From Geobacter metallireducens GS-15 (GTDB lineage: Bacteria > Desulfobacterota > Desulfuromonadia > Geobacterales > Geobacteraceae), in assembly GCF_000012925.1 (NCBI RefSeq), contig NC_007517.1:3000001-3032000 (forward strand): a DNA stretch of 32,000 bases. The letters are read 5' to 3'. A program made the position numbers and the translations under genes. Positions 2,944 to 17,928 of this stretch are shown here, piece after piece (within the stretch, counting starts at the first letter, position 1; every line of letters begins with the position of its first letter). A model generated the notes under the pieces. That model was not told the DNA's origin. It saw only the letters and a program-made list of their open reading frames with translations, and did no database searches.

Positions 2944-4001
2944 GGCTGTGATCCTTTCGTGGTCTGGCCGGCTTTCGGCGCCGTGGCCAGCTTGCCCACT
3001 TCGTTCAGGGCGTCGATCTCAAGTTCCAGTTTCTTGACTCCGGCATCGGCCTCGTTCTTGAGGGTGGTGGCCGTATCCAGCTCCTTCAGGGCCTGCGCCA
3101 GGAGATCGTCGGCAACCTCCTTTTCCGCTGGGGGGAGAGTCGTTGCCTGGCTCTTCAGTTCTTCGACCTTTTTCTGTTTTTCGGCCACCTGCTCGGTGGC
3201 GTTCCGCTGTTTTTCCTTTGCCTGCTCGATCATGGGGAGGCGCAGATGCACCTCCTCGATCATGGTCTGATAGAGGCCCATGCGGACTTCAACCGCACCA
3301 TCCGGCATGGGAGGCTCCGGGAACTCCTTGTCGCACCTGGCCATGGACTCCCCGGTGGGTTTCTCAGAAAACTTCCGGTATTCCTCCGCCCGTTTTTCGT
3401 CGCCGGCCGCCAGGGCCCTGGCCACCTGGCCTCCCCAGTAGGCGCTGCACCGCAACTGCCGGAAGGCATGAGAATCACGGCCGGGAGAGCTTGCGTCCAG
3501 CCCCCGTATCCCGGCCAGGAGCTTCTTCTTTTTGTCGGTGAACTCCTGTTTCTTCTGCTGTTCGTACTGGCTCTCCATCTCCCTGATCTGCTGCTCCACC
3601 TTGGCGCGCCATTCGGCCGCGGCCCGTTCCTGGGCCGCTTTCTGTTCGGCGATCTGCTGGGGGGTCGGGCCGGACTGCTGCGACGGAGAAGGGCCATTGA
3701 GCCAGTTGATGAACGCGTTGGCGGCCATGTCGGTTATGGACTGCATGATCTGCAGTTTCATCTGGTTCTTGAAGGAAAGCCCGCTCTTCGGCGACGACCC
3801 GTAGGAGCCGCCGCCGGAGGGCTGATCGCACTCAATGCGCCCTCCCCGGCAGTAACAAGGGATCCCCTGGTCCGCATAAGCCCTGGCCGAGGCCTTGCAG
3901 TCCACCTCGAAACCGGCAAGGGCGGTTTGCGGCCCTGCCGCGGCAGACAGCAACAGCAGGACGACAGGGGTAAGTCGCAGCAATGATCCCAACCGTAACA
4001 T
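2940..4001 (-). CDS. Exported protein with an N-terminal 4-Cys motif, Gly/Ser linker and long Q/E/K/R-rich coiled coil; function unknown
   Basis: 353-aa ORF with a perfect RBS (AAGGAGG) upstream of ATG 4001. Signal peptide is ...LLLLSAAAGPQTALA, followed by FEVDCKASARAYADQGIPCYCRGGRIECDQPSGGGSYG. The charged helical repeats include EQKAAQERAAAEWRAKVEQQIREMESQYEQQKKQE. Confidence 0.8.
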   Translation of the reverse strand: MLRLGSLLRLTPVVLLLLSAAAGPQTALAGFEVDCKASARAYADQGIPCYCRGGRIECDQPSGGGSYGSSPKSGLSFKNQMKLQIMQSITDMAANAFINWLNGPSPSQQSGPTPQQIAEQKAAQERAAAEWRAKVEQQIREMESQYEQQKKQEFTDKKKKLLAGIRGLDASSPGRDSHAFRQLRCSAYWGGQVARALAAGDEKRAEEYRKFSEKPTGESMARCDKEFPEPPMPDGAVEVRMGLYQTMIEEVHLRLPMIEQAKEKQRNATEQVAEKQKKVEELKSQATTLPPAEKEVADDLLAQALKELDTATTLKNEADAGVKKLELEIDALNEVGKLATAPKAGQTTKGSQP

Positions 4002-4298: not shown

Positions 4299-4643
4299 TC
4301 ATCGGGTCATAAACCAGGCCCATGCCAGAAAAACCCCCGCAAAGAACAGGAGCAACCCCCATGCCAGGAGGCTCGTCCGAGCGCGCCTGGCGGGAAGCGG
4401 CTCTCCAGCCGCATCACCCGCCAGGCGTCCGCGCAGCGCCCAGGCCGACAGCACAAATACGGCCACTCCCGCGCATCCCGCCAGGAGCGCCGGAAGGAGG
4501 CCATCCAGCGCCCCCGGCCTTCGGGTAACGATCACTACCGCCGCCGTGAACCCGATGACCGCCGCGATCCCCCCAGCCAACTTGCCGAGCATTAGCGGCA
4601 GCTGCCTCAGTTCCGCCCTGGCCTGACGCGTTATCTCTCCCAT
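4299..4643 (-). CDS. Small integral membrane protein (about three hydrophobic helices)
   Basis: 114-aa ORF with RBS GGAGGAG. Hydrophobic stretches are GGIAAVIGFTAAVVIV, LLPALLAGCAGVAVFVLSAWAL and LLAWGLLLFFAGVFLAWAWF. Confidence 0.65.
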   Translation of the reverse strand: MGEITRQARAELRQLPLMLGKLAGGIAAVIGFTAAVVIVTRRPGALDGLLPALLAGCAGVAVFVLSAWALRGRLAGDAAGEPLPARRARTSLLAWGLLLFFAGVFLAWAWFMTR

Positions 4644-4694
4644 GGTTCTCCTCCAGCCATTCAGCTGTGCGTATCAGGTTCATCCCGGCTGAAA

Positions 4695-7600
4695 CTACTT
4701 CCCTCCGCCCGCCGCAATGTCCTTGAGCCTCGTCCGCACCTCATCGGAAACGGCCTCATCGGGGTGCGCGGCCAGCCAGCGGGACAGGTTCATCTCCGCG
4801 TATCCCCAATGATCCTTGTATTCATACTCCACCAGACCACAGGTAAGCTGCAGGTCCGGCAGCCGCATCGGCTCGTCGCGCAGGAAGGTCACCCGCACCG
4901 GCATCCCCGGAGTCAGCCGGGCAACGGCAGTTAAAACCTCGTCCACATCCTTCATTCTCTGGGTGTCAAACGCCAGGATGATATCGCCGGCCTTCACCCC
5001 GGCACGCTCGGCGGGGCTTCCCGGCGCAACCGCCTGGACGTAGGCGCCCCCCTCGGCCCTTTTCAGCAGCTTCAGCCCCATCTGCGGCTTCCCCTGCCCC
5101 CCTGCCTGGGGTGGCGACATTTCGGGCACGATATCCACCTGGGCGGGGCGGTAGCCGGCCTCGGACAGCTTGAATGCCTGCACACAGTGCTTATGGACTT
5201 CATATCCCATGTCGTATTGATTCCTTGCCCTGGCCACCAGCTCCCGGACCCTCCCCAGATGGGTGCCGAGGGCCAGCTCCCGTATCGCCGGGTCCTTTGA
5301 ATCGGTGGCCGCCTCCAGGGCCGCATCGTCCTGCTCAAGGGTCCTGATCATGTCCACCGTCCCGAAGAACGACGGCCCCTCGCCAAGGAACATGAGCCGA
5401 CCCTCTCCCGCGCCGATTGAGGCGGTTTCATCCATCTGCTTTATGTAGTCATCCTTCGGGATATCGAAGTATGCCGACGTCGTCAGCTTCTTCCCCGGCC
5501 TGAGGGCGGCCCCCTTCTGCAGCAGCAGGCGCACCATGCGCCGCTGCGCAATCTTGGCCTTGGGGTCCGAACGTTCGTTGAGGGTGTTCAAGGCCACATA
5601 GATCGCGGAGCGTGTCGGGCGGTTCGGCTGCCTCTGGGCCACGGCGGTCGAAGCCCCCTTCTCCAGGAGGAGCTGCATGCATTTTTCCCGACCGGAGAAG
5701 ATGGCGCTGCCAAGAGGGGTGTACTGTCCAATCGAATCAGTCTCGTTCAGGTCTGCCCCTCGCTGGAGGAGAAGCGACAGGATTTCATCTGTGCAGATGC
5801 TGTCGCTCATTTCACTGAGGAGGCTCTGCTTGCCATAACTCATTTCATACCGGAAGTCGGCCCCGTTCTTCAGCAGAAACGCGGCAAAGTCGGCTGAATA
5901 GCTGGACACCAGCGGCGGGCCGCCAGGGAACCGCCGGACGTTGACGTTGGCGCCGCGACGCACCAGCAGTTCGGCCTTGGTCCGCCAGTCGCCAACGTAT
6001 TCGACCATGGTCAGCGGCGATTTCCCCTCCCTGTCGACTGCGTTGGGATTGGCACCCCGCTCCAGAAGCAATTGCACCGCCCGGGCGGAACCGAACTGCA
6101 CGGCTGTGGAAAGGAGCGGTTCGCCGCTCTCGGAGGTGGTGTTGGGATTGAGCCCCTGATCCAGCAGGGCAGTAAGGGTAGCCATGTCATCGTAGCTAAT
6201 GGCTTGCCAGGGGTCCGGCTGTCCGGCAAGCGTGAAGGACCACTCCCCGGCGGGGATGCCATCCACCTCTACCCGCATTCGATAGCGGCCGGGATAGCGG
6301 TTCCCGAGTTCATCGGTAAACCTGTAGTGCACCCCGCCGATCTTCCAGTGGGGAGGAGAGTAACCATTCTCTGTTTTTCCGCCGATGGCGGCAAAGAGCG
6401 GGTCATCGGAACCCTGTGTCACCTGGTAGTTGGCGCTTTTCAGCATGCCGCCGGTCGGCTCATGCCAGGAGACCGTAACCGAATGCCCCCCACGGCTTCG
6501 GGAAAGAGAGGCCTGATCGAATTCGATCCGGGCCACGATGCGCCGCACATCCTTGCGGTCGAAGCTTTCGGCGAATCCCCGGGTATTGTCGAGAGTATCG
6601 CTCTCATAGAAGCTGACGCCGGCAATGGCACAGGGAGGCGCCGCCTCGCCAGGGGCCACGGGCCTCACCGCCAGGTTGAAGCGCCTGAGGTCCGCCAGGT
6701 TGTCGAGGGCCAGCACCCCCAGGGAGGTATTGAACAGCACGTAGAGGGTATCGCCAGCCATGGCCATCCGGTGCCCATACCCCGCCGAGCGCATGATCTC
6801 CAGGGCTCCGCCCTGGCCGGCGAGGACGATCTCCCTGCCGGTGCTGACCACAAGGCCGGCCGGCGTCATGGCCAGCCCCGTCACGGATGCCGAGGGGTGG
6901 GTGTAGTAGGTGCTCTCAGCGCCGTCCTTCACGGAATAGCGGGCGACCGTTCGCCCCTTGGCCACGTAGAGGGCTTCAGCATCGCCCGTAACGGCGGTGA
7001 TGGGCTCGCCCGACTCATAGGCCAGCTCCATGTCGAGGATGCCGCCCCCCTTGAGGGAGCGGAGCAGGTAGAGAGCATGGCGACCACTTCGCGCGTCGAT
7101 GCCGGCACAGTAGACGGTTGTGCCGACGCTGGTCAGGACATCGATTTTGCGCAGGGGTACTTTCGTCACGGGCTGCAGCGCCGCATAGGGTACCCCCTTC
7201 TTGTCCAGGGTTTTCTCCCTGGGCTCGGCGAGGAGCAGCAGATCATTGCCGGCCGACAGGAGGAACACGCCGTTGGAGAGGTGGGTCATCCCTGAGATCG
7301 CGGCTTTCACGGCCACCATGAAGTTTCTGTCGGGGTAGAGCAGGTGGTATGTATCAGAATCACCGCTGAACGCCACAACGGGGGCACCTGCGGCACTGAC
7401 GCTGAAGATGGCGTCGGTTCTGGTCTTTTCCGTGGGGGGGAGCACCCATCGGGGGGCAACCTTAGCCCCCCTGAGGAACAGGAAGGTGGCCTCCGTGAAG
7501 AGGCTGGGCGCGGGCTGCCGCTCCACCGACGGCTTGGGTGCCTGAGGCGTCGGCGGCTTGGGTGCCTGCTGCGACGGTTTGGACACCTGCTGCTTGGGCG

Positions 7601-7706
7601 GCCTGGAGGCAGCCAGCCCCGGCATGCCCAGGAGCAGAGCTAAAATCTGTACCGCTGTTGCCAGCAACGCGGCTTTCCGCCTGATCATTCGCCGAACTGG
7701 ATCCAC
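4695..7706 (-). CDS. Large exported multidomain protein: Pro/Gln-rich linker, beta-rich N-terminal region, ~6-7 ankyrin repeats, C-terminal PDZ domain
   Basis: 1003-aa ORF. The GTG at 7706 is preceded by AAGGGGG. The alternative ATG at 7688 forms an ATGA overlap with the upstream stop. Signal peptide is MIRRKAALLATAVQILALLLGMPGLAAS, followed by the linker PKQQVSKPSQQAPKPPTPQAPKP. ANK repeats include GEPLLSTAVQFGSARAVQLLLERGANPNAVDREGKSPL. The PDZ segment is GAYVQAVAPGSPAERAGVKAGDIILAFD. Confidence 0.9.
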   Translation of the reverse strand: MDPVRRMIRRKAALLATAVQILALLLGMPGLAASRPPKQQVSKPSQQAPKPPTPQAPKPSVERQPAPSLFTEATFLFLRGAKVAPRWVLPPTEKTRTDAIFSVSAAGAPVVAFSGDSDTYHLLYPDRNFMVAVKAAISGMTHLSNGVFLLSAGNDLLLLAEPREKTLDKKGVPYAALQPVTKVPLRKIDVLTSVGTTVYCAGIDARSGRHALYLLRSLKGGGILDMELAYESGEPITAVTGDAEALYVAKGRTVARYSVKDGAESTYYTHPSASVTGLAMTPAGLVVSTGREIVLAGQGGALEIMRSAGYGHRMAMAGDTLYVLFNTSLGVLALDNLADLRRFNLAVRPVAPGEAAPPCAIAGVSFYESDTLDNTRGFAESFDRKDVRRIVARIEFDQASLSRSRGGHSVTVSWHEPTGGMLKSANYQVTQGSDDPLFAAIGGKTENGYSPPHWKIGGVHYRFTDELGNRYPGRYRMRVEVDGIPAGEWSFTLAGQPDPWQAISYDDMATLTALLDQGLNPNTTSESGEPLLSTAVQFGSARAVQLLLERGANPNAVDREGKSPLTMVEYVGDWRTKAELLVRRGANVNVRRFPGGPPLVSSYSADFAAFLLKNGADFRYEMSYGKQSLLSEMSDSICTDEILSLLLQRGADLNETDSIGQYTPLGSAIFSGREKCMQLLLEKGASTAVAQRQPNRPTRSAIYVALNTLNERSDPKAKIAQRRMVRLLLQKGAALRPGKKLTTSAYFDIPKDDYIKQMDETASIGAGEGRLMFLGEGPSFFGTVDMIRTLEQDDAALEAATDSKDPAIRELALGTHLGRVRELVARARNQYDMGYEVHKHCVQAFKLSEAGYRPAQVDIVPEMSPPQAGGQGKPQMGLKLLKRAEGGAYVQAVAPGSPAERAGVKAGDIILAFDTQRMKDVDEVLTAVARLTPGMPVRVTFLRDEPMRLPDLQLTCGLVEYEYKDHWGYAEMNLSRWLAAHPDEAVSDEVRTRLKDIAAGGGK

Positions 7707-9103
7707 GCCTTCACCCCCTTCCGTGATGCGGACAGCTCATCGTTGAAACGCTTCCAGAACCCCTCGGCATCGAAACTGGTGCCGGTCGCGGCCGTCGCAT
7801 CCACCATGAACCGGTTGAGGGCTTGGTAGGCGACCTTCGAATACATCCGCCCCCCCTCCACGGCAAACTCCGCATGGGGCCCCACCGGCTCGGGTATCTT
7901 GGAAATAATCAGATCCGCCGTCTCGGCGCCGGCCGCGGGAGCGCCCCCCTCCCCGGCTTTGACCGCGATGCGCCCCACAGCGAGCATCTTTTCGTAGTAC
8001 CCCTTGAATTTCTCGCCCCGGGCCTCTTCGATGGCGTCGCCGGTCTCCGACTCGATAATCTTCGTGATCTTGTCGGTGAAAAAATCAGCCGCAAACGCCG
8101 TAGTGATGGGATCATCGGGCTGGGACTTCGAATCCGCGGCAGAGGCGAGCCGGCGGTCCGGAGATTTGATGGTCCGCGCCGCATTGGCAGCCGAACTGTC
8201 CTGCTGGAACATCCCCATGACGGAGTTCAGGAGGGTCTTGCTCACCACCCGGGGAAGCGGCAGGCGGAGGCTGTCCCGCTCTTCGTCGGAACGGGGCTGC
8301 CCGGCGGCCATGGCCCACAGCTCGTTGCGCCGGCGCAGTGCCGCATAGAAGGCCTCCGCATCGGCGTCGGAGAGCACCCCATCCTTATTGAGCCTGGCGT
8401 AGAGCACGGCTACCGTTTCCTGTGCCGCCAGATATTCCTGCCATTGCTGCGGGGAAAAGCCGGGGAGTGGGACCACCGGCCGCGGGGCCTGGACCGTCTT
8501 GCTCAGGGGTTTCGCAGCGGGCATGAGCGCAACCAGCTTTCCCATCCGCTGGCGGTACTCTGAGCGCTCCTTCCGCAACTCTTCCTGTCGTTTCAGCTCC
8601 TGCTCGGCGCGGCGCAGGTTTTCCTGGATCACCTTGTCGTTGGGGGACTTGCCCACGGCATTCTTATAAAGCTCCACCGCCTTTGCCCAATCACTCTTCT
8701 CATAGGCCCGGTTCCCCTGCTCATTGAGGTTGAAGGCTTCCTGCTTCCGCTGCCGCTCCTCCTGCTGCCGTGCCTGCTCCCGCTCCTCCTGCCACTGGTT
8801 GATCCGCTCAAACAGGCTCGGGCCGCGTTCGTAACCGCTGTTTCCGCCGTCATCGCCGCCGGAGCCTCCGCACCCGCTGACACACTCCGGGCCGCTAACC
8901 GGCGGGATATACACTGACCCTCCGCCGGTCATGGACCGGAGCTGATCGAAGGCGCCGGCTGACGCCTCCGCAGTGAACGCGGCAGCGGCGCAGAACTGGC
9001 AGGCCGCCAGGAACAGAAGCCCCCGCCCCCTGAGGGTCTTAACTTTAATAAACCTCGTGCCCATAGTCATGGGAGGGCCCCCTCTCCGTGTCTCTCGATT
9101 CAT
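7685..9103 (-). CDS. Exported coiled-coil / TPR-like protein of unknown function
   Basis: 472-aa ORF. The better-supported start may be ATG 9070 (MTMGTRF...), which is preceded by GGAGAGGGGG. Signal peptide is ...LLFLAACQFCAAAAFTAEASA. It is followed by the Cys/Gly motif GPECVSGCGGSGGDDGGNSG and a charged coiled coil (QWQEEREQARQQEERQRKQEA). There is one TPR-like unit (NEQGNRAYEKSDWAKAVELYKNAV). Confidence 0.8.
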   Translation of the reverse strand: MNRETRRGGPPMTMGTRFIKVKTLRGRGLLFLAACQFCAAAAFTAEASAGAFDQLRSMTGGGSVYIPPVSGPECVSGCGGSGGDDGGNSGYERGPSLFERINQWQEEREQARQQEERQRKQEAFNLNEQGNRAYEKSDWAKAVELYKNAVGKSPNDKVIQENLRRAEQELKRQEELRKERSEYRQRMGKLVALMPAAKPLSKTVQAPRPVVPLPGFSPQQWQEYLAAQETVAVLYARLNKDGVLSDADAEAFYAALRRRNELWAMAAGQPRSDEERDSLRLPLPRVVSKTLLNSVMGMFQQDSSAANAARTIKSPDRRLASAADSKSQPDDPITTAFAADFFTDKITKIIESETGDAIEEARGEKFKGYYEKMLAVGRIAVKAGEGGAPAAGAETADLIISKIPEPVGPHAEFAVEGGRMYSKVAYQALNRFMVDATAATGTSFDAEGFWKRFNDELSASRKGVKAWIQFGE

Positions 9104-9854
9104 AGGTGTACCTGCCGCCCGGGAAGAACCTCTGCGTAACCTTCTCGAAAACAGGGAGGAACTCCCGGAATTTTTCCTCTGGGGCGGTGTAGCGCAGGGC
9201 GAAAAACCCCTGCTTCGCGGGGAGCACCACGAACCGCTCCCTGATGGGTATCCTTGTGGCGTTCAAGCCCGGCCGGATATACACACCAGGCTTTACGGGT
9301 CCGCCCGTCCCGCTTTCCCTCGGCGCGTACTCCTTCTTGACACGCTCGAACACCATTCCATCCCTGCCGGCAACCTTCACGGCCGTGACATCCCCGTAAC
9401 TGCTCCCATCAAGGGACACCCCCAAAGCCGGCTGCGCGAAAACCCTGAGGTAGTGGTCCACGGATTTGTACATCAGGTTCCCTTCCGCGTAGTAGAAGAT
9501 GGAGATAGCGACGGAGGGTTCGCCCGGCTCCGGGGCTTTCAGGTGAAAACCGTAGGTCTTTTTCTCCTCATTGCTCAAGCCGAGGCCGGATCCGTAGTTG
9601 TCGACCCGTGACCACTCCGGCGGGATATCGCAGGAGAAGTAGTCTCCCACCTCCACGGTCACAAACCCGTCGGGGTCGGGAATTCCCGGGATCAGCTCGT
9701 GGGGAACCGAATGCGTTAGCGGCAATGCCGAAGAGGGAAGGGAAGTGCCGGCCTGTGCCGGCCCATCCCACACTGCCAGCGCCGCCAGCAAAACCAAGCA
9801 CGGCAGCAGGGCCCGGGGATTGCACCTTTTCGTCACAACTGTCGATGCCTTCAT
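9045..9854 (-). CDS. Exported protein of unknown function
   Basis: 269-aa ORF. Its ATG overlaps the stop of the upstream ANK gene (ATGA at 9851-9854). Signal peptide is ...LLPCLVLLAALAVWDGPAQA. I recognise no motif with confidence. Confidence 0.75.
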   Translation of the reverse strand: MKASTVVTKRCNPRALLPCLVLLAALAVWDGPAQAGTSLPSSALPLTHSVPHELIPGIPDPDGFVTVEVGDYFSCDIPPEWSRVDNYGSGLGLSNEEKKTYGFHLKAPEPGEPSVAISIFYYAEGNLMYKSVDHYLRVFAQPALGVSLDGSSYGDVTAVKVAGRDGMVFERVKKEYAPRESGTGGPVKPGVYIRPGLNATRIPIRERFVVLPAKQGFFALRYTAPEEKFREFLPVFEKVTQRFFPGGRYTYESRDTERGPSHDYGHEVY

Positions 9855-10714
9855 ATCGTGTTTTTCCCCCAGTTCCTGAACAGTTCCACGATCGATGCGA
9901 AGCCGCGCTCCTCCGCCAGTTGCCGGGGGGTTAGCCCTCTGTCGTTCCTGATGGTCGGGTCGGCCCCCCGGGCAAGGAACAGTCTGACGAATTCTTCATA
10001 GCCAAGGCCGACGGCGTAATGGAGTGGCGTGTCGCCGTACCGGCCGGCGATATTGATGTCCGCGCCGCTGTCGAGGATGAGAGTCGCGGCCTCCAGCGCC
10101 TCTGCGGAAACGGCGGCATGGAGCGGTGTGAATCCCTTGTTGTCCGTGATGTTCACATCGGCCCCCTTTTCCAGCAGCAGGCGGACCATCCCGGTGTTGC
10201 CTCTCCGACAGGCCTCCCGCAGGGGGGTATACCAGTAGCTGTTGGCGATGGTCACATCGGCTCCGGCGTCGAGAAGAATCCGAGCAACATCGTCATGCCC
10301 CTCGTGAACGGCGGCAAAGAGGGGGGTGTTCCCCTCGCCATTGACGGCATTCACCCGGGCCCCGGCAGCGAGCAGAATCCGCGTCGCCTCGGCATGGCCG
10401 TAATGGGCCACGTTGTGGAGGAGGGTGATGCGGTACTCCTTGTCCGCGTAGTTGGCATCGGCCCCCTTGGCAAGGAAATCCCCGATGACACCGGCATCGC
10501 CGTATCCCTGGTTGAGGTAGAGGAAGAGCGCTTCCGAGGGGGGGGTCCCCTCCGGTATTTCCAGGGGCTTCAGGACCGGCTCGTACTTCCTGCCGAGGAA
10601 CTGCTCCAGAAGGTCGCCCCCTTCATCGGCGGCAGCCGCCGGACCCGCCGCCACCAGAAGCAGCAGAGCCATCAATACTGTGATTGCACGGAGCATCGTG
10701 GCTGCAATGGTCAT
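9851..10714 (-). CDS. Exported ankyrin-repeat protein (~6-7 ANK repeats)
   Basis: The ORF track gives 9851..10723 with a GTG start. ATG 10714 lies 6-9 nt after AAAGGAGGTG, so I prefer it. The signal peptide ends ...MALLLLVAAGPAAAA. Repeats are of the form TLLHNVAHYGHAEATRILLAAGARVNAVNGEGNTPL. Confidence 0.9.
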   Translation of the reverse strand: MTIAATMLRAITVLMALLLLVAAGPAAAADEGGDLLEQFLGRKYEPVLKPLEIPEGTPPSEALFLYLNQGYGDAGVIGDFLAKGADANYADKEYRITLLHNVAHYGHAEATRILLAAGARVNAVNGEGNTPLFAAVHEGHDDVARILLDAGADVTIANSYWYTPLREACRRGNTGMVRLLLEKGADVNITDNKGFTPLHAAVSAEALEAATLILDSGADINIAGRYGDTPLHYAVGLGYEEFVRLFLARGADPTIRNDRGLTPRQLAEERGFASIVELFRNWGKNTI

Positions 10715-10750
10715 GTCCAGCACCTCCTTTTCGGTCTTACGCTCTGGAAC

Positions 10751-13021
10751 TCACTCCCGCCAAGGAGGAGGCGTAAGCGGCAGCGGTTCATAATCGCCTT
10801 CCCCCTTCCCCTTCACGATCCGCATGGTGACACCCTTCTGCTTTGCGTAGACCTCCATGCGGTACTGGCCACCGAAGGAGGGGCGGCCGAAACCGCGCTC
10901 CGCTTCCATGGCAATCCTGTTCATAAACAGCCGATAGGTGATCTGCATCACCCCATCCTTCACAGAGGGCTCATCGAAGTGGATGGAGTAGAGCCACTCC
11001 GCCTCGGCCCCCAAAAAGACGCAGGCCACGGCGAAGTTATCGAAATCGACGATGGGCGCCGGCTTGTCAAAGGCCCGCTTCCAGAGATCCTCCCACTGGG
11101 TGCGGTCGTCCACCACCGTGATGAACGGCTCCTTCATGGCGGCGTCGTACCCTGTCCAGGACATGCCGGCATAGTCCCGCCCCGCGCCCGCTTTTTCCAG
11201 AAGCTCCAGCATCTTCCGATCGCCCCGCTCCGCAGCCAGGAGCCAGGCGGTTTTTCCGTCCCTGTTCGTGAGGGTGATGTCGGCCCCCTTGGCCAGCAGG
11301 ACCTGGGCCACGGCCGCGTTTCCCTGCCCCGCCGCCATCAGCAGGGCGCTCATCCCCTTGTCGTCCTGGGCGTTGATGTCGGCACCGTGCTCCAGGAGAT
11401 GGCGCACCACCTCGGGGTTGGCGTCGGACCAGTTCCCCGCCTCCAGGATAAGGGGGGTCTTCTGGTAGTAATCCCGGGCGTTCGGGTCGGCCCCCTTCTT
11501 CACCAGAAGCTTAACCATCTCCAGATCGGCCTTGGGAAGGGCCGTGAGGAGCGCATCCTTCACATCGGCCCCCTTGTCGATGAGCCGGGAGGCGAGGGAA
11601 ACGTTACGGGCCTTGATGGCCGCCTGCAAATCGTCGGTACGCACGGTAGCGCCCCGCTCCAAGAGCAGGCGAACGATCCCGTCATGCCCTCCGGCAATGG
11701 CGATAGTCAGCGCCCCCTCGGAATCCTTCCCCAGGATGTTGACATCGCCCCCCCTGGCAAGGAGGGCCTTGACCGTTGCCATATCCCCCTTCTCGCAGGC
11801 ATGCATCAGGGGAGTCTTCCCCCCTTCGTCGACGACATTGACCGGTGCCCCTCTGGCAATGAGGAGCCCGGCGATCTCCGCCGGCCCGTCCTTGATGGCC
11901 ATGGTCAGCAGCGGGGTGCCGCCGATGATGATGTCAGGGTCGGCCCCCCTCTCCAGCAGGAGCCGAACAGACTCCAGATGCTTGTTCATGGCCGCGAAAA
12001 CCAGGGCCGGCCGTCCCAGACTGGAGGCGTTCACGTCGGCCCCCTTGGCCAGGAGGGTCTTGACGACCTCGTCGTGGCCAGTGCTGGCCGCAAACATGAG
12101 GGGAGTGAAATCGGTGCCGTTTTTGGCGTCAATCTGCGCTCCCCTCTTCAGGAGAAGCTCAACCATGTCAGCCCGCCCCATGCTTGCGGCCTGCATGAGG
12201 GCCGTGCTCCCGTTGCCGAAGCGCCCGTTGACGTCGGCACCCTTGTCGAGGACCGCGACTACGTCAGCCGCGTTACCTCTCTTGACGGCGTCGGAGAGGG
12301 GGGTATTCGGCCCGAGAATGGCCAGGTCGGGCCGCTTCGGATCCTTGAGAAGCTGCGACAGGTAGTCGAGCTTCAACTCCTGGGCCAGGGTAATCGCGGT
12401 GTCGCCATCCTTATCCTTTGCGGAGGGATCGGCCCCCTTCCGGAGGAGCGGCCAGACCAGCCTGGCATCCGCGTGCCGCACGGCCCAGATGAGCGCGGTA
12501 CGGCCATATTCGCCCGCGGCATTCACCTCGGCGCCGTGCTTCAGAAGGGCTTCGAGGGTTTCCCGCGGGTCCCCTTCCGGCCCCCTGTGGAAAAACGCTC
12601 CCCTCATGGCAAGAATCAGGGGGGTATCCCCCTTTTTCGTCCAGGCGTTGACATCGGCCCCCTTTCCCAGGAGATAGGCGACGACCTTCGCGTGTCCCTG
12701 CTCGGCGGCATGGAGCAGGGGGGTTTGCTCAAACGCCCCTTTCGCGTCAACCTTCGCGCCGCTTTCCACCAGCAGCCGGACCACCTCCAGACAACCGTTT
12801 TCGGCGGCCAGCGACAGGGGAGTGCTGTCGTTGCGGTCTTTCCGGTCGCGATACGCGGGATTGGCGGCCCATGTGCGCGCCGTTGCCAGATCGCATTCCT
12901 TGGCAGCCGCGTGGAGGGGGGTGTGGTCCATGTCCGGCGGCGGCAGCATGGTCAGGGCAAAGGCCGGGGCCGCCAAGAGCAGCGTTGCGAGCAGAAGGGG
13001 GCCATTCATCCGTATAGTCAT
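10751..13021 (-). CDS. Exported ankyrin-repeat protein (~16 ANK repeats) with a distinct ~140-aa C-terminal domain (PrcB_C-like?)
   Basis: The ORF track start at 13060 has no RBS. ATG 13021 is preceded by AAGGAAGGA and forms an ATGA overlap with the methyltransferase stop, giving MTIRMNGPLLLATLLLAAPAFA. I counted about 16 (K/R)GA(D/x)(V/I/P)(N/D) repeat junctions. The C-terminus reads ...FITVVDDRTQWEDLWKRAFDKPAPIVDFDNFAVACVFLGAE... Confidence 0.9.
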   Translation of the reverse strand: MTIRMNGPLLLATLLLAAPAFALTMLPPPDMDHTPLHAAAKECDLATARTWAANPAYRDRKDRNDSTPLSLAAENGCLEVVRLLVESGAKVDAKGAFEQTPLLHAAEQGHAKVVAYLLGKGADVNAWTKKGDTPLILAMRGAFFHRGPEGDPRETLEALLKHGAEVNAAGEYGRTALIWAVRHADARLVWPLLRKGADPSAKDKDGDTAITLAQELKLDYLSQLLKDPKRPDLAILGPNTPLSDAVKRGNAADVVAVLDKGADVNGRFGNGSTALMQAASMGRADMVELLLKRGAQIDAKNGTDFTPLMFAASTGHDEVVKTLLAKGADVNASSLGRPALVFAAMNKHLESVRLLLERGADPDIIIGGTPLLTMAIKDGPAEIAGLLIARGAPVNVVDEGGKTPLMHACEKGDMATVKALLARGGDVNILGKDSEGALTIAIAGGHDGIVRLLLERGATVRTDDLQAAIKARNVSLASRLIDKGADVKDALLTALPKADLEMVKLLVKKGADPNARDYYQKTPLILEAGNWSDANPEVVRHLLEHGADINAQDDKGMSALLMAAGQGNAAVAQVLLAKGADITLTNRDGKTAWLLAAERGDRKMLELLEKAGAGRDYAGMSWTGYDAAMKEPFITVVDDRTQWEDLWKRAFDKPAPIVDFDNFAVACVFLGAEAEWLYSIHFDEPSVKDGVMQITYRLFMNRIAMEAERGFGRPSFGGQYRMEVYAKQKGVTMRIVKGKGEGDYEPLPLTPPPWRE

Positions 13022-14259
13022 GCTGATCCTTCCTTTTCTATGACAGAGACAGGTTCCCATGGAGGGATGCCGTTCATTTCAGCCATCAGCGCCGGCCGGT
13101 GCGCGTGCTTCACCTCGCTGGGGGAGGCGTCGAGGGCCGCCAGAGCCATTTCGTAATTGAGCCGCGCCGCATCGGCGTTACGGTGCAGGCCGTGGATCCG
13201 CGCACTGTTCCAGTAGACAAAGGGGTTGTCCCGGAAGATGCGGGAGGATTCCCCGAAGCTGTCAAGGGCCTCCCGGTACTCCCCCAGATGGAACTGCTTG
13301 AGCCCCCTGGCGAACACCTTGTCCGCCAGGGACTTCAGGAGCGGTTCGGAGAACACCGTCACCGGCCTCCCCTCGTCCCTCGGCAACTCAACGGTTTTAC
13401 CGGCAAGCACGGCCGAGATGATGGCAATGCCGTCCCGGAGGATTTCCCGATAGGCGTCCCCCTGCCGGCCGGCCCCCTCGGGCCGGGCCTTCAGCATGGC
13501 CAGGAGAGCCCCCTGGAACCGGCTCTCTGCCAGACGGGCGGCAACGGCGCGGCATTTTCCGGCATTGGCATCACTCTTCCCCTTGAGGGTGAAAAACTCA
13601 CGGACGATTTCCGCGCTGTACACGGCAAGCCCCATGGTCTCGGCGGCGTCCCGCTGCAGGGCATCGGCAAGGCGCTTCAGCAGCTCCTCCTGCCCGGCCA
13701 TGACGAGTTCATCTTCGAAGGCGGGAATTTCCTGCATCACGAGCCGCTTCCTCAGTTCGGCCATGAACTCGTGCTGTTTCCGGTCGGCCGGCTTTCGCAG
13801 GATCAGCCGCAGGGAGGGCCGGTTATCCTGATAGAGGAAGGATTCATGGTGCATGAGGGCGAACCCGGCCTCGGCAACCAGCTCCCGCAGCAGTTCCAGG
13901 GGGAAGCAGAACCGGTGCTGCATGCCGGCAGTTTCGGCGCCGTAGAGCCATGTCAGGGCGTCCTCCCGGGCTGTCCGGTCTCCGGCCAGGAAAATCTCGA
14001 AGGAGCGCTCCAGATGTGGCGTTTCAAGGCGGAGCGTCCCACTCGGCCGCAGCACCCGGAAACACTCGGCCAGAAAGTACTTCCCCTTGAAAAACCCGAG
14101 GTGTTCCATAAGCTGCGACGCCACGATCTCGTCAACGGAGGCTGTGTCCAGGCACAGGTCATGGGCCTCCATAATGGCGTCGGCGACAGAATCGCCGCTG
14201 ACGTCGATGTTCAGGTGCCCTTTCAGGTAGGTATGGCCGCAGCCGATGTTCAGTTTCAT
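13018..14259 (-). CDS. Class I SAM-dependent methyltransferase fused to a C-terminal TPR-like helical domain (cytoplasmic)
   Basis: 413-aa ORF. The N-terminus MKLNIGCGHTYLKGHLNIDV...VDEIVASQLMEHL...ECFRVLRPSGTLRLETP matches the Methyltransf_11-type pattern (motif I, then the (E/D)HL and RVL(K/R)PGG motifs). The C-terminal helices include YREALDSFGESSRIFRDNPFVYWNSARIH. There is no signal peptide. Confidence 0.85.
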   Translation of the reverse strand: MKLNIGCGHTYLKGHLNIDVSGDSVADAIMEAHDLCLDTASVDEIVASQLMEHLGFFKGKYFLAECFRVLRPSGTLRLETPHLERSFEIFLAGDRTAREDALTWLYGAETAGMQHRFCFPLELLRELVAEAGFALMHHESFLYQDNRPSLRLILRKPADRKQHEFMAELRKRLVMQEIPAFEDELVMAGQEELLKRLADALQRDAAETMGLAVYSAEIVREFFTLKGKSDANAGKCRAVAARLAESRFQGALLAMLKARPEGAGRQGDAYREILRDGIAIISAVLAGKTVELPRDEGRPVTVFSEPLLKSLADKVFARGLKQFHLGEYREALDSFGESSRIFRDNPFVYWNSARIHGLHRNADAARLNYEMALAALDASPSEVKHAHRPALMAEMNGIPPWEPVSVIEKEGSA

Positions 14260-14262
14260 GGT

Positions 14263-15414
14263 CTACCGGTGGCCGAGAAACGAGTCCCTCAGCCTTTTTT
14301 CATTCCCCCGGGCGCCGAGGGTCGCGAGCCTCCTGCGCGCCTTCAACAGGAGCCGGTACCAGGGGTTTCGCAGCTCTCTCTCGAAAATGTGCTGCTCGAT
14401 CCGGTGGAAGCAGTAGGGATCGTTGTGGAATTCCCCGGTCTTCATGAGGGACATCTCGTTGCATCCCCCCTTGCACGTGGCCAAGTGCGGGCATACGCGG
14501 CAGTTCTCCCCGGCGTCGTCGGCGGTAAAGCCCCGCGAATAGGGGAAAGCCCCGGCGCTCCGCCAGAGATCGCGGACCGACGTCTCCCGCACATTGCCGG
14601 CAATGGTGCTGTCGTCCATGGAGAGGCACCCCTTGATGTTGCCGTTGCTCTGGATGCCGATGACCGACACCCCGGCCTGGCACCCCGTCCACTCACCGGT
14701 CAACGAGATGTTGTCCAGCATCAGGGAGTGGTAGCCCATGTCATGGGCGCCGATGACCGGCATCGCGTGAATCGGGTACGCTTTTCGGGTGGAGGCGATG
14801 AAGAGCCCCACGGAATAGAACTCTTCCTCGTCCAGGAGCAACTCCCGGGGGAATCTCCTTCCCTCGGCCCCGGCCACCTGGATCTGCCACGCAACGTTTT
14901 TCCTCAGCAACTGCTCCCGCAGAGCCGTAAGTTCCGTCAGGTTCATCCTGTGGACCGTGGTGATGACGCTCACCGGCAGTCCCGCCTCCCCTGCCGCCCG
15001 GATGAAATCCCAGGTTTCCCGGAAGGCGCCGCTCCGCCCCCGGATATGGTCGTGGATGGCGGGGGTTGCGGCATCGAGGCTCACGGCAACGGCGCGGGGG
15101 TCCAGTTCCCTGAGCCGCGCGAAGATCTCGGGGTCATGAATCGTCCCGTTGGTGATGACGGAGAGCTCCATGCCGAGCTTCCTGATGAGGCCGGCGATCT
15201 GCCAGAAATCCTTCCTCAGGAGCGGCTCGCCCCCCATGAGGGCAACGCCGAGGCAGCCGGCCTCTTTCAGGTCATGACACAGGGCCACGGCCTCGTCGGT
15301 CGTCAGCTCGTCGGTTCTCCTGCTCCCCGCGCTCGACCCGCAGTGGATGCAGTTCAGGTTGCAGGCCAGGGTAAACTCCCAAACCGCGCATTCGAGGGTA
15401 TAGGCGCCGTTCAC
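14263..15414 (-). CDS. Radical SAM / SPASM-domain enzyme (protein or peptide maturase type), no N-terminal RRE/PqqD domain
   Basis: 383-aa ORF with a GTG start preceded by GGGGTAGG. The radical SAM cluster motif is C18-x3-C22-x2-C25 (ACNLNCIHCG), and a GGEPLL motif is present. The SPASM signature is CQAGVSVIGIQSNGNIKGC (C-x12-G-x4-C) followed by CRVCPHLATCKGGC (C-x2-C-x5-C-x3-C) and a trailing Cys. Confidence 0.92.
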   Translation of the reverse strand: MNGAYTLECAVWEFTLACNLNCIHCGSSAGSRRTDELTTDEAVALCHDLKEAGCLGVALMGGEPLLRKDFWQIAGLIRKLGMELSVITNGTIHDPEIFARLRELDPRAVAVSLDAATPAIHDHIRGRSGAFRETWDFIRAAGEAGLPVSVITTVHRMNLTELTALREQLLRKNVAWQIQVAGAEGRRFPRELLLDEEEFYSVGLFIASTRKAYPIHAMPVIGAHDMGYHSLMLDNISLTGEWTGCQAGVSVIGIQSNGNIKGCLSMDDSTIAGNVRETSVRDLWRSAGAFPYSRGFTADDAGENCRVCPHLATCKGGCNEMSLMKTGEFHNDPYCFHRIEQHIFERELRNPWYRLLLKARRRLATLGARGNEKRLRDSFLGHR

Positions 15415-15426
15415 GACCTACCCCGC

Positions 15427-15894
15427 TCAGCGGGAGAGGTGCCGGAAATCCCGGACGCTCACGGTGTAGTACTTGGTGCCGCAGGGATAACCGGGGAAGG
15501 GACCGCCACAGTCGTCATCGGGAATCACCGGCTCCGCCTGCTGGGCGAGGCACTCCTGTGCGCACTCCTCCCTGGTTTCGAAGGGAACCACGCCTTCGCA
15601 GCCCCCGTAGACGAACTCCTTGCACTCATTGGTCTTCGGGTCAAAATAGTATTTCCAGAACAGGGCCTTGCAGGGACCGCCGTCCGGCTTGAGGCGGCAC
15701 TTCTCCGGCAGCGGCTCCTTGGCCTGGGGTTTTACGTGATCTTGAAGAGGAACCGTGGCATCAGCCTGGGCCGAACCAGTAAAGGCGGAAATGATCAATG
15801 CCATAAGCCCCGACATGCCGATCCTGACGAAGCTCCTGATCTCGCCTTCTCCAAGACCCGCCTTTTTCCCGATTCGAGCAATTTTCCTGTTCAT
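15427..15894 (-). CDS. Exported Kunitz/BPTI-domain protein (predicted trypsin-type serine protease inhibitor, P1 Lys) with a Cys/Asp-containing C-terminal tail
   Basis: The ORF track gives 15427..15918. ATG 15894 (MNRKIARIG...) is preceded by GGGGG 7 nt upstream, so I prefer it. The hydrophobic signal segment ends AFTGSAQA. The domain CRLKPDGGPCKALFWKYYFDPKTNECKEFVYGGCEGVVPFETREECAQEC has Cys spacing 8-15-7-11-3. BPTI has 8-15-7-12-3 ([51 protein letters not shown]). GPCKA and FVYGGC are shared with BPTI. Confidence 0.85.
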   Translation of the reverse strand: MNRKIARIGKKAGLGEGEIRSFVRIGMSGLMALIISAFTGSAQADATVPLQDHVKPQAKEPLPEKCRLKPDGGPCKALFWKYYFDPKTNECKEFVYGGCEGVVPFETREECAQECLAQQAEPVIPDDDCGGPFPGYPCGTKYYTVSVRDFRHLSR

Positions 15895-15986
15895 CTCCAC
15901 ACCCCCGGATTCTGTCATAATTTTCGCCGGCCAAGGTTATATGGTCCTGTATTCCCTATCGGTTCGCGCATTCTTTTCTTGACCGA

Positions 15987-16013
15987 ATTATACGGATTTT
16001 ATCGCTCTGTCAG
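15987..16013 (-). promoter_or_regulatory. Candidate sigma70-type promoter upstream of the Kunitz/rSAM/methyltransferase genes
   Basis: On the minus strand there is a perfect TATAAT at 15992..15987, with CTGACA at 16013..16008. The spacer is only 15 nt, which is suboptimal. The site lies in the 106-130 nt gap between the 16025 stop and the Kunitz start. Confidence 0.3.
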
Positions 16014-16024
16014 TGCTTACGCCG

Positions 16025-16321
16025 CTAATCCTTGAAGAGTAATGTTGCTTTCACGACCTGTTTCCCGTCATGCTCGATTTCGCACACATAGCGCCCCATG
16101 ACGCCGCTGGCCGTGACCAGGGCCTTAGTGGGGGAAGTGCTGTCAAAAAACCGGAAACCGCTTTGCAGCGCCTTCTCTTTCGCAACAGCCAGCAAAGTGC
16201 CGGCAGCCGTTTCGCGGCAGTAGCCGACCAGTTTTTTCTTGGTCCGGTAGCCGTCTGCCACACCGACCAGAAACATCAATATGATAACGGCCAATACCAG
16301 CTTGAAAACTTTCTTCACCAT
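16025..16321 (-). CDS. Small membrane-anchored protein of unknown function
   Basis: The ORF track gives 16025..16327 with a GTG start. The ATG at 16321 follows GGGGGTGG. The N-terminal TM segment is VFKLVLAVIILMFLVGV, followed by a ~70-aa soluble part with 2 Cys. Confidence 0.6.
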   Translation of the reverse strand: MVKKVFKLVLAVIILMFLVGVADGYRTKKKLVGYCRETAAGTLLAVAKEKALQSGFRFFDSTSPTKALVTASGVMGRYVCEIEHDGKQVVKATLLFKD

Positions 16322-16491: not shown

Positions 16492-17928
16492 ATGCGTTTT
16501 TATAACAGGGAAAAAGAACTTGCCCGCCTAATGGAAATAGCCACCCTCTCGGAAGAGTCGGCCCACCTGGCGGTCATCACCGGCAGGCGCCGGGTCGGCA
16601 AGACCGAACTGATCCGAAAGTTCGCCGAAGGACGGGACGACTTTCTCTATTTCTTCGTGTCGAAGAAAAAACCTCGCGTTCTGCTCGATGAATTCCGGGA
16701 TCTCCTGGCCGCACGGGTGCCGCTGCTGGCCTCGGCATCCTTCGGGAGCTTTGACGATTTCTTCCGCGCTCTTTTCGAAATCACGAAAGAGCGCCCGCTG
16801 TTTATCGTCTTCGACGAGTTCCAGAACTTCCAGCAGGTGGACCCGGCGGTCTTTTCGACGCTCCAGGATCTGTGGGACCGGAACAAGGGCACCATCAAGG
16901 GGACCATCGTCTGCATCGGGTCGGTGCAGACCCTCATGCGCGAGATCTTCGAGGGCGCCAAGGAACCGCTCTTCGGTCGAGTGACCGCCCGGCTCTACGT
17001 GGAGCCCCTGATCCCCGACGTGGTTGCCACAATCCTTGCCGACCACCAGGTTGATGCGGTCAGGCACCTCCCCTTCTTCTTCACCCTCTTCGGCGGCATC
17101 CCCAAATACTATTTCCTGCTCGACCGCTACCGGCTCTTCGGCAAAACTCCGGCGGAGATCATCCGAAAATTCTTCTGCGAGACCGACGCCCTCTTACAGA
17201 ACGAGGGGAAAGACCTCCTGGTGGAGGAGTTCGGCAAGAACTATCATCTCTACTTCTCCATCCTTCAGGTTATCGCCGGCGGCGAGAACCAGATGGCCCG
17301 CATCGCCGACAAGTCGGGGATCAACGTCAACAGCATCAGCAAATACCTCGACGAACTGACCTCCTACTACCAGGTCATCGAGCGACGGCTGCCGGTGACG
17401 GCGACCCGGCAGGAGCAGAAAACCGGCCGCTACTACCTGAAGGATCCGTTGCTCCGTTTCTGGTTCCGGTACATCTACCGCAACCAGAGCCTGATCGAGA
17501 TCGGCGACGAAGAGGGGCTTCTGGGCAAGATCCAGGCAGATCTCTCGACCTTCATGGGGTGGTCGTTCGAGGAGTTGATCCGCGCCATGCTCCTGAAGCG
17601 CAATGACGGCACGGTGGTTCCGTTCGGCTTCACCCGGATCGGCGGATTCTGGACCAAGCGGGGGGATGTGGAGATTGACATCGTGGCGCTCAACGAGGAG
17701 GATGGAGCGATCTTCTTCGGCGAATGCAAGTTGAGCGGCAGCAGGTTCAGCGTGGCCGATGCCCGGCGGCTAAAGGAAAAGGCCAAGGCTGTCCCATGGC
17801 GCACCGGCGACCGGCGGGAGCATTTTGTCCTTTTCTGTATGGACGACCTTGAGAGCGACGCGGAACAGGCCCTTGCCGCCGAAGGGGTCGGCGTCGTAAG
17901 GCTTCGCCAGCTGCTATCGGTGCCATAA
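16492..17928 (+). CDS. AAA ATPase (archaeal-ATPase type, Walker A GRRRVGKT) with C-terminal DUF234 / PD-(D/E)xK-like domain
   Basis: 478-aa ORF. The N-terminus MRFYNREKELARL...LAVITGRRRVGKTELIRKF and the Walker B-like LFIVFDEFQ fit this ATPase type. The C-terminus GDVEIDIVALNEEDGAIFFGECKLS matches the D...(E)xK pattern typical of DUF234. No Shine-Dalgarno is visible upstream of the ATG. Confidence 0.85.
   Translation: MRFYNREKELARLMEIATLSEESAHLAVITGRRRVGKTELIRKFAEGRDDFLYFFVSKKKPRVLLDEFRDLLAARVPLLASASFGSFDDFFRALFEITKERPLFIVFDEFQNFQQVDPAVFSTLQDLWDRNKGTIKGTIVCIGSVQTLMREIFEGAKEPLFGRVTARLYVEPLIPDVVATILADHQVDAVRHLPFFFTLFGGIPKYYFLLDRYRLFGKTPAEIIRKFFCETDALLQNEGKDLLVEEFGKNYHLYFSILQVIAGGENQMARIADKSGINVNSISKYLDELTSYYQVIERRLPVTATRQEQKTGRYYLKDPLLRFWFRYIYRNQSLIEIGDEEGLLGKIQADLSTFMGWSFEELIRAMLLKRNDGTVVPFGFTRIGGFWTKRGDVEIDIVALNEEDGAIFFGECKLSGSRFSVADARRLKEKAKAVPWRTGDRREHFVLFCMDDLESDAEQALAAEGVGVVRLRQLLSVP

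Follow-up and report, generated by a model that had tools for sequence, protein, structure and literature searches.

Why would a bacterium export a protein with a Kunitz/BPTI protease-inhibitor domain, and what is the rest of that protein for? The question is raised by a gene on the minus strand of a 32,000-nucleotide stretch of the Geobacter metallireducens GS-15 genome (contig NC_007517.1, positions 3,000,001–3,032,000; hereafter the window, whose own numbering is used for its genes). An original prediction, made from the letters of this DNA, had read the product as a periplasmic or secreted serine-protease inhibitor. A bacterial Kunitz protein with a predicted export signal is indeed encoded here, and inhibition is plausible, but that reading appears incomplete, as it missed a putative scaffold partnered with a radical S-adenosylmethionine (SAM) enzyme. 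We propose a four-part, radical SAM-partnered precursor whose tail would be modified in the cytoplasm before Sec export, yielding, in the periplasm or outside the cell, a Kunitz inhibitor whose C-terminal peptide is modified; we put the probability of this reading at roughly two in three. Its observed part comprises domain identity, fold, conservation pattern and gene linkage.

From its first ATG the open reading frame (ORF) runs over 15427–15918 and encodes 163 residues. Most aligned homologues favour the second ATG (at 15894, MNRKIARIGKK), which gives a protein of 155 residues and has a G-rich stretch 7 nt upstream. The coordinates first given for the gene, 15427–15894, match this start and product; the strand had been left out and is minus. 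Scans for a sigma-70 promoter and a terminator around the gene were uninformative.

A bacterial Kunitz domain with a trypsin-type reactive loop

The Kunitz peptide quoted in the original prediction (CRLKPDGGPCKALFWKYYFDPKTNECKEFVYGGCEGVVPFETREECAQEC) was found at residues 66–115, Cys1 to Cys6 (15550–15699, minus strand), and a recount bore out its Cys spacing of 8-15-7-11-3 (8-15-7-12-3 in BPTI) together with GPCKA and FVYGGC. Against Pfam PF00014 the domain scored 53 bits (E = 3.9e-14, gathering cut-off 21), in a match spanning profile positions 2–52 of 53. A phmmer search of the PDB returned 108 Kunitz sequences at E ≤ 1e-3, with SmCI, TFPI, boophilin and textilinin as best matches and BPTI also among them; every one of the 108 alignments has a one-residue gap after Cys4, so the single-residue deletion reported earlier is real. 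Identity to metazoan Kunitz domains was 38–49%.

An AlphaFold2 (AF2) model built on 28 homologues had a moderate mean predicted local distance difference test score (pLDDT) of 61, with 70–83 in the Kunitz segment; secondary structure in that region consisted of helices at residues 72–75 and 116–123 and strands at 87–93 and 98–104. Superposed by Foldseek on TFPI KD1, textilinin, APPI and BPTI, the segment gave target TM-scores of 0.73–0.84 and a root-mean-square deviation of 1.4–1.7 Å. All six Cys are invariant across 28 aligned homologues, at a spacing able to form the three predicted disulfides. Profile, PDB matches and fold confirm that the protein carries a true Kunitz/BPTI domain, far beyond chance.

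Within the loop, C-K-A (P1 Lys at residue 76, P1′ Ala) is invariant in the same 28 homologues, which argues for a working trypsin-type inhibitor. The trypsin-like target expected earlier from the P1 Lys agrees with this, as GPCKA with invariant Lys and Ala would fit a canonical trypsin-type inhibitor. Alternatively, the domain might be non-inhibitory, either a binding or toxin-like module in the manner of dendrotoxins and mambaquaretin or a shield that protects the precursor or its tail from proteolysis during maturation. Foldseek matches did include non-inhibitory Kunitz proteins (mambaquaretin, calcicludine and dendrotoxin), one family member (P0187) has Gln at P1, and C11 clostripain-family peptidases are encoded in two related clusters (L017 and L020, described below). 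We nevertheless consider this decidedly unlikely, given a loop identical to that of BPTI and invariant among homologues, a related bacterial Kunitz gene that adjoins a serpin gene, and the five-Kunitz exotoxin F6W77 of Acinetobacter baumannii, which has been shown to inhibit the serine proteases FXa and FXIa (PMC11511053).

A radical SAM/SPASM gene directly follows the Kunitz gene

Only 12 nt past the Kunitz stop codon begins a gene that the original prediction did not mention. It encodes a 383-residue radical SAM/SPASM enzyme (14263–15414, minus strand; Pfam Radical_SAM 3.8e-29, SPASM 7.9e-7). Read from the translation, its CX3CX2C motif is C18/C22/C25 and its seven-Cys SPASM set is C245, C263, C305, C308, C314, C318 and C335. 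Its best NCBIfam models are peptide maturases, TIGR03913 (GDL-motif) and TIGR04103 (Nif11 maturase 3), and its sequence relatives in the PDB are SkfB, BlsE, PqqE and SuiB. The next gene, 3 nt further on, encodes a methyltransferase-like protein of 413 residues (13018–14259, minus strand) with weak Methyltransf_11/23 matches, which combines an N-terminal class I methyltransferase fold (MKLNIGCG...) with a C-terminal region of ~270 residues without assigned function; no sequence relative of it was found in the PDB.

We retrieved ~30 full-length homologues of the Kunitz protein, nearly all from metagenomes or from metagenome-assembled genomes (MAGs) of Geobacteraceae. Eight distinct loci had an intact tail and enough contig to be sampled (the window, L001/L002, L007, L008/L009, L010/L011, L012, L013 and L014), and an orthologous radical SAM gene (71–94% identity) directly follows the Kunitz-tail gene in all eight. 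Further downstream the neighbourhoods diverge: the pair is followed by the methyltransferase and then ankyrin-repeat (Ank) proteins in the window and in L001/L002, where the block is syntenic, by the methyltransferase and a single Ank protein in L010, and by the methyltransferase and tetratricopeptide-repeat (TPR) proteins in place of Ank in L008/L009, while L007 shares the Kunitz–radical SAM pair alone. Because it is replaced or absent in other loci, the downstream Ank block lies outside the conserved core. The methyltransferase-like gene accompanies the radical SAM gene in Geobacteraceae, Elusimicrobia and archaeal loci.

Degraded copies were also found. In L004–L006 one deletion took the Kunitz tail together with radical SAM residues 1–106, including the CX3CX2C region; what is left in L004 (10323–11153) is a remnant of residues 107–383 that overlaps the tail-less Kunitz ORF, P0027. 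We had considered this ORF as a case of a lost tail without a radical SAM neighbour, which tblastn ruled out, as the neighbour is the N-terminally truncated enzyme. L028 holds a degenerate Kunitz gene followed by radical SAM and methyltransferase fragments. As controls, two bacterial Kunitz proteins devoid of the n-region and tail described below (P0033 and P0034) have no radical SAM neighbour.

The same n-region and tail occur without a Kunitz domain

The Kunitz domain is set between an N-terminal and a C-terminal part, each separated from it by a variable linker. The N-terminal part consists of a charged n-region (residues 1–25, MNRKIARIGKKAGLGEGEIRSFVRI; 15820–15894, minus strand), a leader-like element, and a signal-peptide h-region with a likely signal peptidase I site (residues 26–44, GMSGLMALIISAFTGSAQA followed by DA; 15763–15819, minus strand). 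Kyte–Doolittle hydropathy peaks at 1.88 over residues 25–39, just before SAQA-D with its AxA motif, and AF2 places a helix over the h-region; on reading, this is a candidate signal peptide with predicted cleavage. The following linker (15700–15762, minus strand), poorly conserved, ends in LPEK and extends the bacterial Kunitz module at its N terminus. After Cys6 comes a variable acidic linker (LAQQAEPVIPDDD; 15511–15549, minus strand; conservation 0.43) and then the C-terminal motif (CGGPFPGYPCGTKYYTVSVRDF; 15445–15510, minus strand), the presumed site of modification by the radical SAM enzyme and possibly also the methyltransferase.

To place these parts we draw on a genome scan for relatives of the radical SAM enzyme, which revealed orthologues in Elusimicrobia (60% identical). 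Near them, ~1–3 kb away and behind a methyltransferase-like gene, lie ORFs of ~105 residues. In four of the five Elusimicrobia loci (L016, L018, L026 and L027) they share the n-region and tail but lack a Kunitz domain; the copy in L017 is truncated, with only the n-region left. A hidden Markov model (HMM) made from Kunitz proteins alone matched the intact Elusimicrobia ORFs in two pieces, positions 3–64 and, for the tail, 113–153, skipping the Kunitz part, with a domain E of 7.7e-14 for the n-region/h-region piece. The gene set of radical SAM enzyme, methyltransferase and precursor recurs in L026 and L027. The four loci whose flanks were examined (L016, L017, L026 and L027) each have an FtsJ/S4 methyltransferase gene upstream and, where the flank reaches, the exonuclease VII genes (xseA/xseB) beyond it.

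A profile without the Kunitz part retrieved 207 clusters, of which we parsed 106 members, 79 Kunitz-less and 27 Kunitz-bearing. A profile search of 1.84 billion representatives gave just 52 clusters, all small; we looked there for other cargo domains in the family and found the Kunitz domain alone. No curated family emerged when the Kunitz-less and the archaeal precursors were scanned with Pfam and NCBIfam, nor did the Kunitz protein match any NCBIfam model.

The original prediction had remarked on an unusually long charged N-region. A charged n-region of 25 residues is real; it is no idiosyncrasy of this protein and proved to be a conserved family element. It is conserved in 28 Kunitz-bearing homologues, and 43 Kunitz-less members show no or almost no variation at its K3, T11, G12 and E17; its conservation of 0.59–0.67 compares with 0.43–0.50 for the linkers. 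The two branches of the family differ after the h-region, where 77 of 79 Kunitz-less members have a lipobox Cys, as against none of 27 Kunitz forms. The proposed reading accounts for a lipoprotein family, so far unannotated, that all the Elusimicrobia loci examined encode beside these same radical SAM and methyltransferase genes.

The tail, too, had been noted as a peculiarity, with two extra Cys next to an Asp cluster. It is present, although 40 residues follow Cys6, not 35, and it is conserved throughout a family of predicted exported proteins of ~105 residues, mostly lipoproteins of Elusimicrobia that lack a Kunitz domain, in which the two Cys are dispensable. Among Kunitz-less members it is the most conserved of all elements (0.90, against 0.67 for the n-region and 0.44 for the linker), with the consensus CGPYPGYPCGT[KR]Y[YF]TVSxxDF. 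Y7, Y13, D20 and F21 are invariant in the 106 parsed members, a figure to be read with the parsing pattern in mind, which itself demanded both Tyr and an acidic–aromatic pair; independently of that pattern, the tail was again the most conserved element in a separately made alignment.

What chemistry might such a motif undergo? The first Cys of the tail is substituted in 23 of 106 members and the second in 11 of 106, divergent members lack both (for example, NYPAGTKYNTASPKDF), and archaeal repeats are likewise free of Cys. Because the tail Cys are dispensable, we rule out thioether formation between tail Cys and the Asp cluster (of the sacti-, ranthi- or QhpC-like kind) as the universal reaction. 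Splicease-like chemistry at XYG is likewise not supported as a general explanation, as Y-G is confined to some subgroups (KYGAIG, YYGTVS), with Y-Y/F-T in its place in the main group. We speculate that the invariant Tyr, [KR]-Tyr and Asp-Phe point to Tyr-centred C–C or C–O chemistry, or to the Asp, or a position close to it, as the modified site.

Because the same elements occur without a Kunitz domain beside orthologous radical SAM enzymes, n-region, signal h-region and tail are, on comparative sequence grounds, the defining elements of a putative radical SAM-partnered exported precursor family, so far uncurated. The Geobacter protein is then best read as a probable chimera, in which a bacterial Kunitz module (LPEKC...EC) was inserted between signal peptide and tail in Geobacteraceae.

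An alternative account is an ordinary secreted Kunitz inhibitor, in which the n-region merely lengthens the signal peptide, the tail is a disordered extension, and the radical SAM enzyme and methyltransferase act elsewhere. It would suit the Kunitz identity and P1 Lys, the existence of bacterial Kunitz proteins that stand alone behind an ordinary signal peptide, a tail predicted to be disordered, and a radical SAM enzyme without a recognition domain. It fits poorly with an adjacency kept across divergent neighbourhoods and phyla, with the recurrence of n-region and tail apart from any Kunitz domain, with a tail conserved more strongly than any other part of the family, and with the joint loss of the tail and the radical SAM N-terminus in L004; nor does the core cassette hold any other conserved candidate substrate. 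We judge it quite improbable.

Related gene clusters in archaea

Radical SAM enzymes 42–50% identical to that of the window are encoded in Thermoplasmatales and in DPANN-type MAGs. In one Thermoplasmatales locus (L020), an 85-residue ORF (5606–5863) has a leader-like N-terminus, no transmembrane (TM) segment and three tandem repeats of YKAGTxYGT[VI]SxxD[VF]; the bacterial tail HMM matches it at E 9e-6 among 1432 ORFs. The surrounding region (4358–9695) holds three radical SAM/SPASM paralogues, the triple-repeat ORF and a clostripain-family C11 peptidase (7070–8599), and appears to be a complete modified-peptide gene cluster, so far undescribed. In L024, a 79-residue ORF directly upstream of the radical SAM gene joins a leader-like N-terminus and a TM segment to GERYGGINIEDF (motif RYGGINIEDF), an end that resembles the short-tail Geobacter-type variants SKYGAIGIGDF. 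The DPANN-type loci L021–L023 are arranged differently, as a methyltransferase-like gene, three to five tandem paralogous proteins of ~120 residues with two TM segments each, and then the radical SAM gene (3526–7020 in L021); the tandem proteins carry a GYP[FY]AGG motif and end in Y[ND]VY.

The pairing of precursor and maturase is conserved across lineages, in eight Geobacteraceae-type, five Elusimicrobia and two archaeal loci with the motif.

These relatives also bear on whether the tail instead serves binding, anchoring or sorting, for instance by attachment to an envelope component, in which case the Kunitz domain would be surface-displayed and the radical SAM enzyme and methyltransferase would modify the leader or another partner. 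Kunitz-less relatives are lipoproteins of little beyond linker and tail, and the housekeeping-like Elusimicrobia neighbourhood (xseA-xseB-FtsJ/S4) hints at an envelope role over a diffusible natural product. The tail, however, has no hydrophobic segment as in known C-terminal sorting signals, and the L020 ORF, with its leader-like N-terminus, tandem-repeat cores and absence of a TM segment, has the classic layout of a modified-peptide precursor. Anchoring of this kind seems unlikely to us, and it does not exclude a modification that is needed for anchoring.

A more distant variant was seen in a Myxococcota MAG (L025, 246–2727), where two tandem radical SAM paralogues (40–42% identity) precede a 127-residue lipoprotein ending in ...CGYKSPTKYAVLDPSSIVNA; this end is a distant variant of the tail, and the long n-region is absent.

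A proposed model for maturation and export

Gene linkage, conservation pattern and the precedents of radical SAM/SPASM enzymes acting before export lead us to the following mechanism. The conserved, charged 25-residue n-region would be a leader-like recognition element that guides modification (part one), fused directly to the h-region of a Sec signal whose cleavage site is AQA (part two); a canonical Kunitz domain with P1 Lys (part three) and the Tyr-rich C-terminal motif of 22 residues (part four) would follow. The radical SAM/SPASM enzyme, possibly together with the methyltransferase, would modify the still-unfolded tail in the cytoplasm, within the stretch GYPCGTKYYTVSVRDF and most likely at a site involving the invariant Tyr or Asp-Phe. 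After Sec export, signal peptidase would cut between AQA and DA, removing leader and signal peptide together, and the three Kunitz disulfides would form in the periplasm. Once mature, the protein would be a trypsin-type inhibitor, located in the periplasm or outside the cell, whose C-terminal peptide bears the modification. Substrate relationship, order of events, cleavage and inhibition are the parts of this model that we infer.

Several observations weigh against the model. The tail modification is a prediction from linkage and conservation, and the AF2 model of the tail, which is predicted to be disordered, has a low confidence of ~55. Against NCBIfam equivalogs (TIGR03913, TIGR04103, MftC, PqqE, SkfB and TIGR04133 rSAM_w_lipo) the radical SAM enzyme reached no cut-off, its best scores being 194.7 against 591.75 and 189.1 against 725. 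No match to a PqqD-like leader-binding domain, the RiPP recognition element (RRE; RiPP, a ribosomally synthesized peptide that is modified post-translationally), was found in the radical SAM enzyme or the methyltransferase with Pfam or NCBIfam, and the radical SAM domain begins at residue 13; as many radical SAM maturases lack an RRE, this is not disqualifying. The methyltransferase is missing in L007. Pfam recognised no trypsin-fold protease gene in the operon. The n-region and h-region could instead form an uncleaved membrane anchor. Finally, a leader-only HMM from bacterial members gave E 0.39 against archaeal ORFs when biased towards Geobacter, and with 106 members it yielded no match at E ≤ 1. 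A leader HMM from mixed seeds is circular for L020 and L021 and was not counted as proof, and a possible leader homology with the archaeal ORFs is suggestive only.

Beyond the Geobacter protein, the relatives raise the prospect of an unrecognised class of exported polypeptides modified by radical SAM/SPASM enzymes (with or without the methyltransferase), with a leader fused to a Sec or lipoprotein signal and a core of Y-P-x-G-T-[KR]-Y-x-T-V-S-x-x-D-F, present in Elusimicrobia and Thermoplasmatales and, in Geobacteraceae, with a captured Kunitz domain. For this wider proposal we consider the odds even.

Should the tail prove to be modified, the family would be a new group of radical SAM substrates, its core motif being new and its Tyr/Asp chemistry probably so too, and would present a way to join leader-guided cytoplasmic tailoring with Sec or lipoprotein export. 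The Geobacter protein would then be the first BPTI-family inhibitor with RiPP-type tailoring, its tail a warhead, anchor or cofactor made by a radical SAM enzyme. The system would be directly testable, with three genes, a 155-residue substrate and a mass-spectrometry read-out.

Origin of the Kunitz module

The 11-residue Cys4–Cys5 spacing with G[VT]VPFET is present in most of the bacterial Kunitz proteins retrieved (P0031–P0042, from Nitrospiraceae and others). These stand-alone proteins have ordinary signal peptides or other N-terminal domains; P1 Lys is common to them, and about half (P0031, P0033, P0036, P0040 and P0042) share the LPE[KR]C junction. Since this Kunitz subtype also occurs in other bacterial proteins from the environment, the single-residue deletion is the signature of a bacterial Kunitz subfamily that seems to behave as a mobile module.

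A transfer from animals had been raised earlier as a matter for phylogeny. A recent one is a poor fit to both the bacterial-subfamily spacing and the host-like base composition. Window GC is 61.6%, and the third-codon-position GC (GC3) of the Kunitz segment, 0.82, falls inside the 0.76–0.87 range of the other operon genes. The DNA is 88–92% identical to that of Geobacter hydrogenophilus DSM 13691. With Geobacter-level DNA identity and host-range GC3, the segment is resident bacterial DNA, and recent horizontal transfer or contamination is ruled out.

L029 (1–5789) offers another, unrelated instance in which Kunitz and radical SAM genes lie close together. The stand-alone Kunitz gene there, P0036, sits immediately upstream of a serpin gene, and a distinct radical SAM gene, accompanied by a 'tSAM_targ_Cxxx_rpt' peptide, lies 1–3 kb upstream.

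Other genes of the window

Downstream of the methyltransferase, the minus strand from 4695 to 13060 encodes five proteins, of 769 (Ank), 290 (Ank), 269, 472 and 1003 residues (Ank and PDZ), assigned by Pfam Ank and PDZ matches and forming a lineage-specific part of the operon. Such a density of eukaryote-like repeats is unusual for Geobacter; the C-terminal PDZ of the 1003-residue protein is HtrA-like, and the 269- and 472-residue ORFs belong to no family. Further along, a 370-residue protein (1831–2943, minus strand) has a C-terminal thioredoxin domain and is flanked by ORFs without family (691–1818 and 2940–4001); it could serve Kunitz disulfide handling or be unrelated. Upstream of the Kunitz gene lies a divergent gene for an ATPase_2/DUF234 protein, an archaeal-type ATPase (16492–17928, plus strand), a neighbour that is conserved in L001/L002. 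An antisense frame of 978 residues, open on the plus strand over the methyltransferase, radical SAM and Kunitz genes (13099–16035), is almost certainly a high-GC artefact and no gene.

Comparison with known systems

Bacterial Kunitz domains have rarely been described. Few bacterial Kunitz peptides are known (PMC11511053), and only one has been functionally tested in the literature searched. Geobacter-type domains have already been annotated by machine, P0027 as a 'BPTI/Kunitz domain-containing protein'; P0009 (L001, 10001–10486) bears the UniRef name 'Proteinase inhibitor I4 serpin', a mis-annotation, as it has a Kunitz domain and no serpin domain. Literature searches combining Kunitz with radical SAM, and SPASM with Elusimicrobia, found nothing relevant. 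The Kunitz domain alone is not new; it is the radical SAM-linked architecture that appears to be, which sets a folded, disulfide-rich inhibitor domain in a scaffold whose genes, in bacteria as in archaea, are linked to one for a radical SAM/SPASM enzyme.

With the BPTI/Kunitz family (PF00014, MEROPS I2; BPTI, TFPI KD1, textilinin-1 and SmCI) the Geobacter protein shares the six Cys at 8-15-7-x-3, GPCKA, FVYGGC and the fold. It differs from that family in its bacterial host, in the 11-residue Cys4–Cys5 segment with G[VT]VPFET, and in having a leader/signal and a radical SAM-associated tail around the domain. The A. baumannii exotoxin resembles it as a bacterial, secreted protein with animal-type Kunitz domains, but is a tandem multi-Kunitz protein of a pathogen with P1 Arg, and a radical SAM partner, leader-like n-region and tail are unreported for it.

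On the maturation side, the systems of PqqA/PqqE, MftA/MftC and SkfA/SkfB and those of TIGR03913 and TIGR04103 likewise set a small precursor with a conserved N-terminal element and a C-terminal core beside a radical SAM enzyme with a full SPASM domain, and PQQ and mycofactocin biosynthesis involve chemistry on Tyr-containing cores. The Geobacter system departs from them in a radical SAM enzyme that scores below their cut-offs, the lack of an RRE, the fusion of the leader with a Sec or lipoprotein signal, and a folded, disulfide-bearing domain of 50 residues between leader and core. Radical SAM/SPASM enzymes are known to modify polypeptides before export, as anSME and AtsB do with sulfatases and QhpD with QhpC, and it is this logic of cytoplasmic modification followed by export that the proposed model shares. 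The Geobacter family nevertheless stands apart from both, as anSME acts at C/S-x-P-x-R and QhpD forms Cys–Asp/Glu thioethers, whereas here the Cys are dispensable and the sequences belong to neither group.

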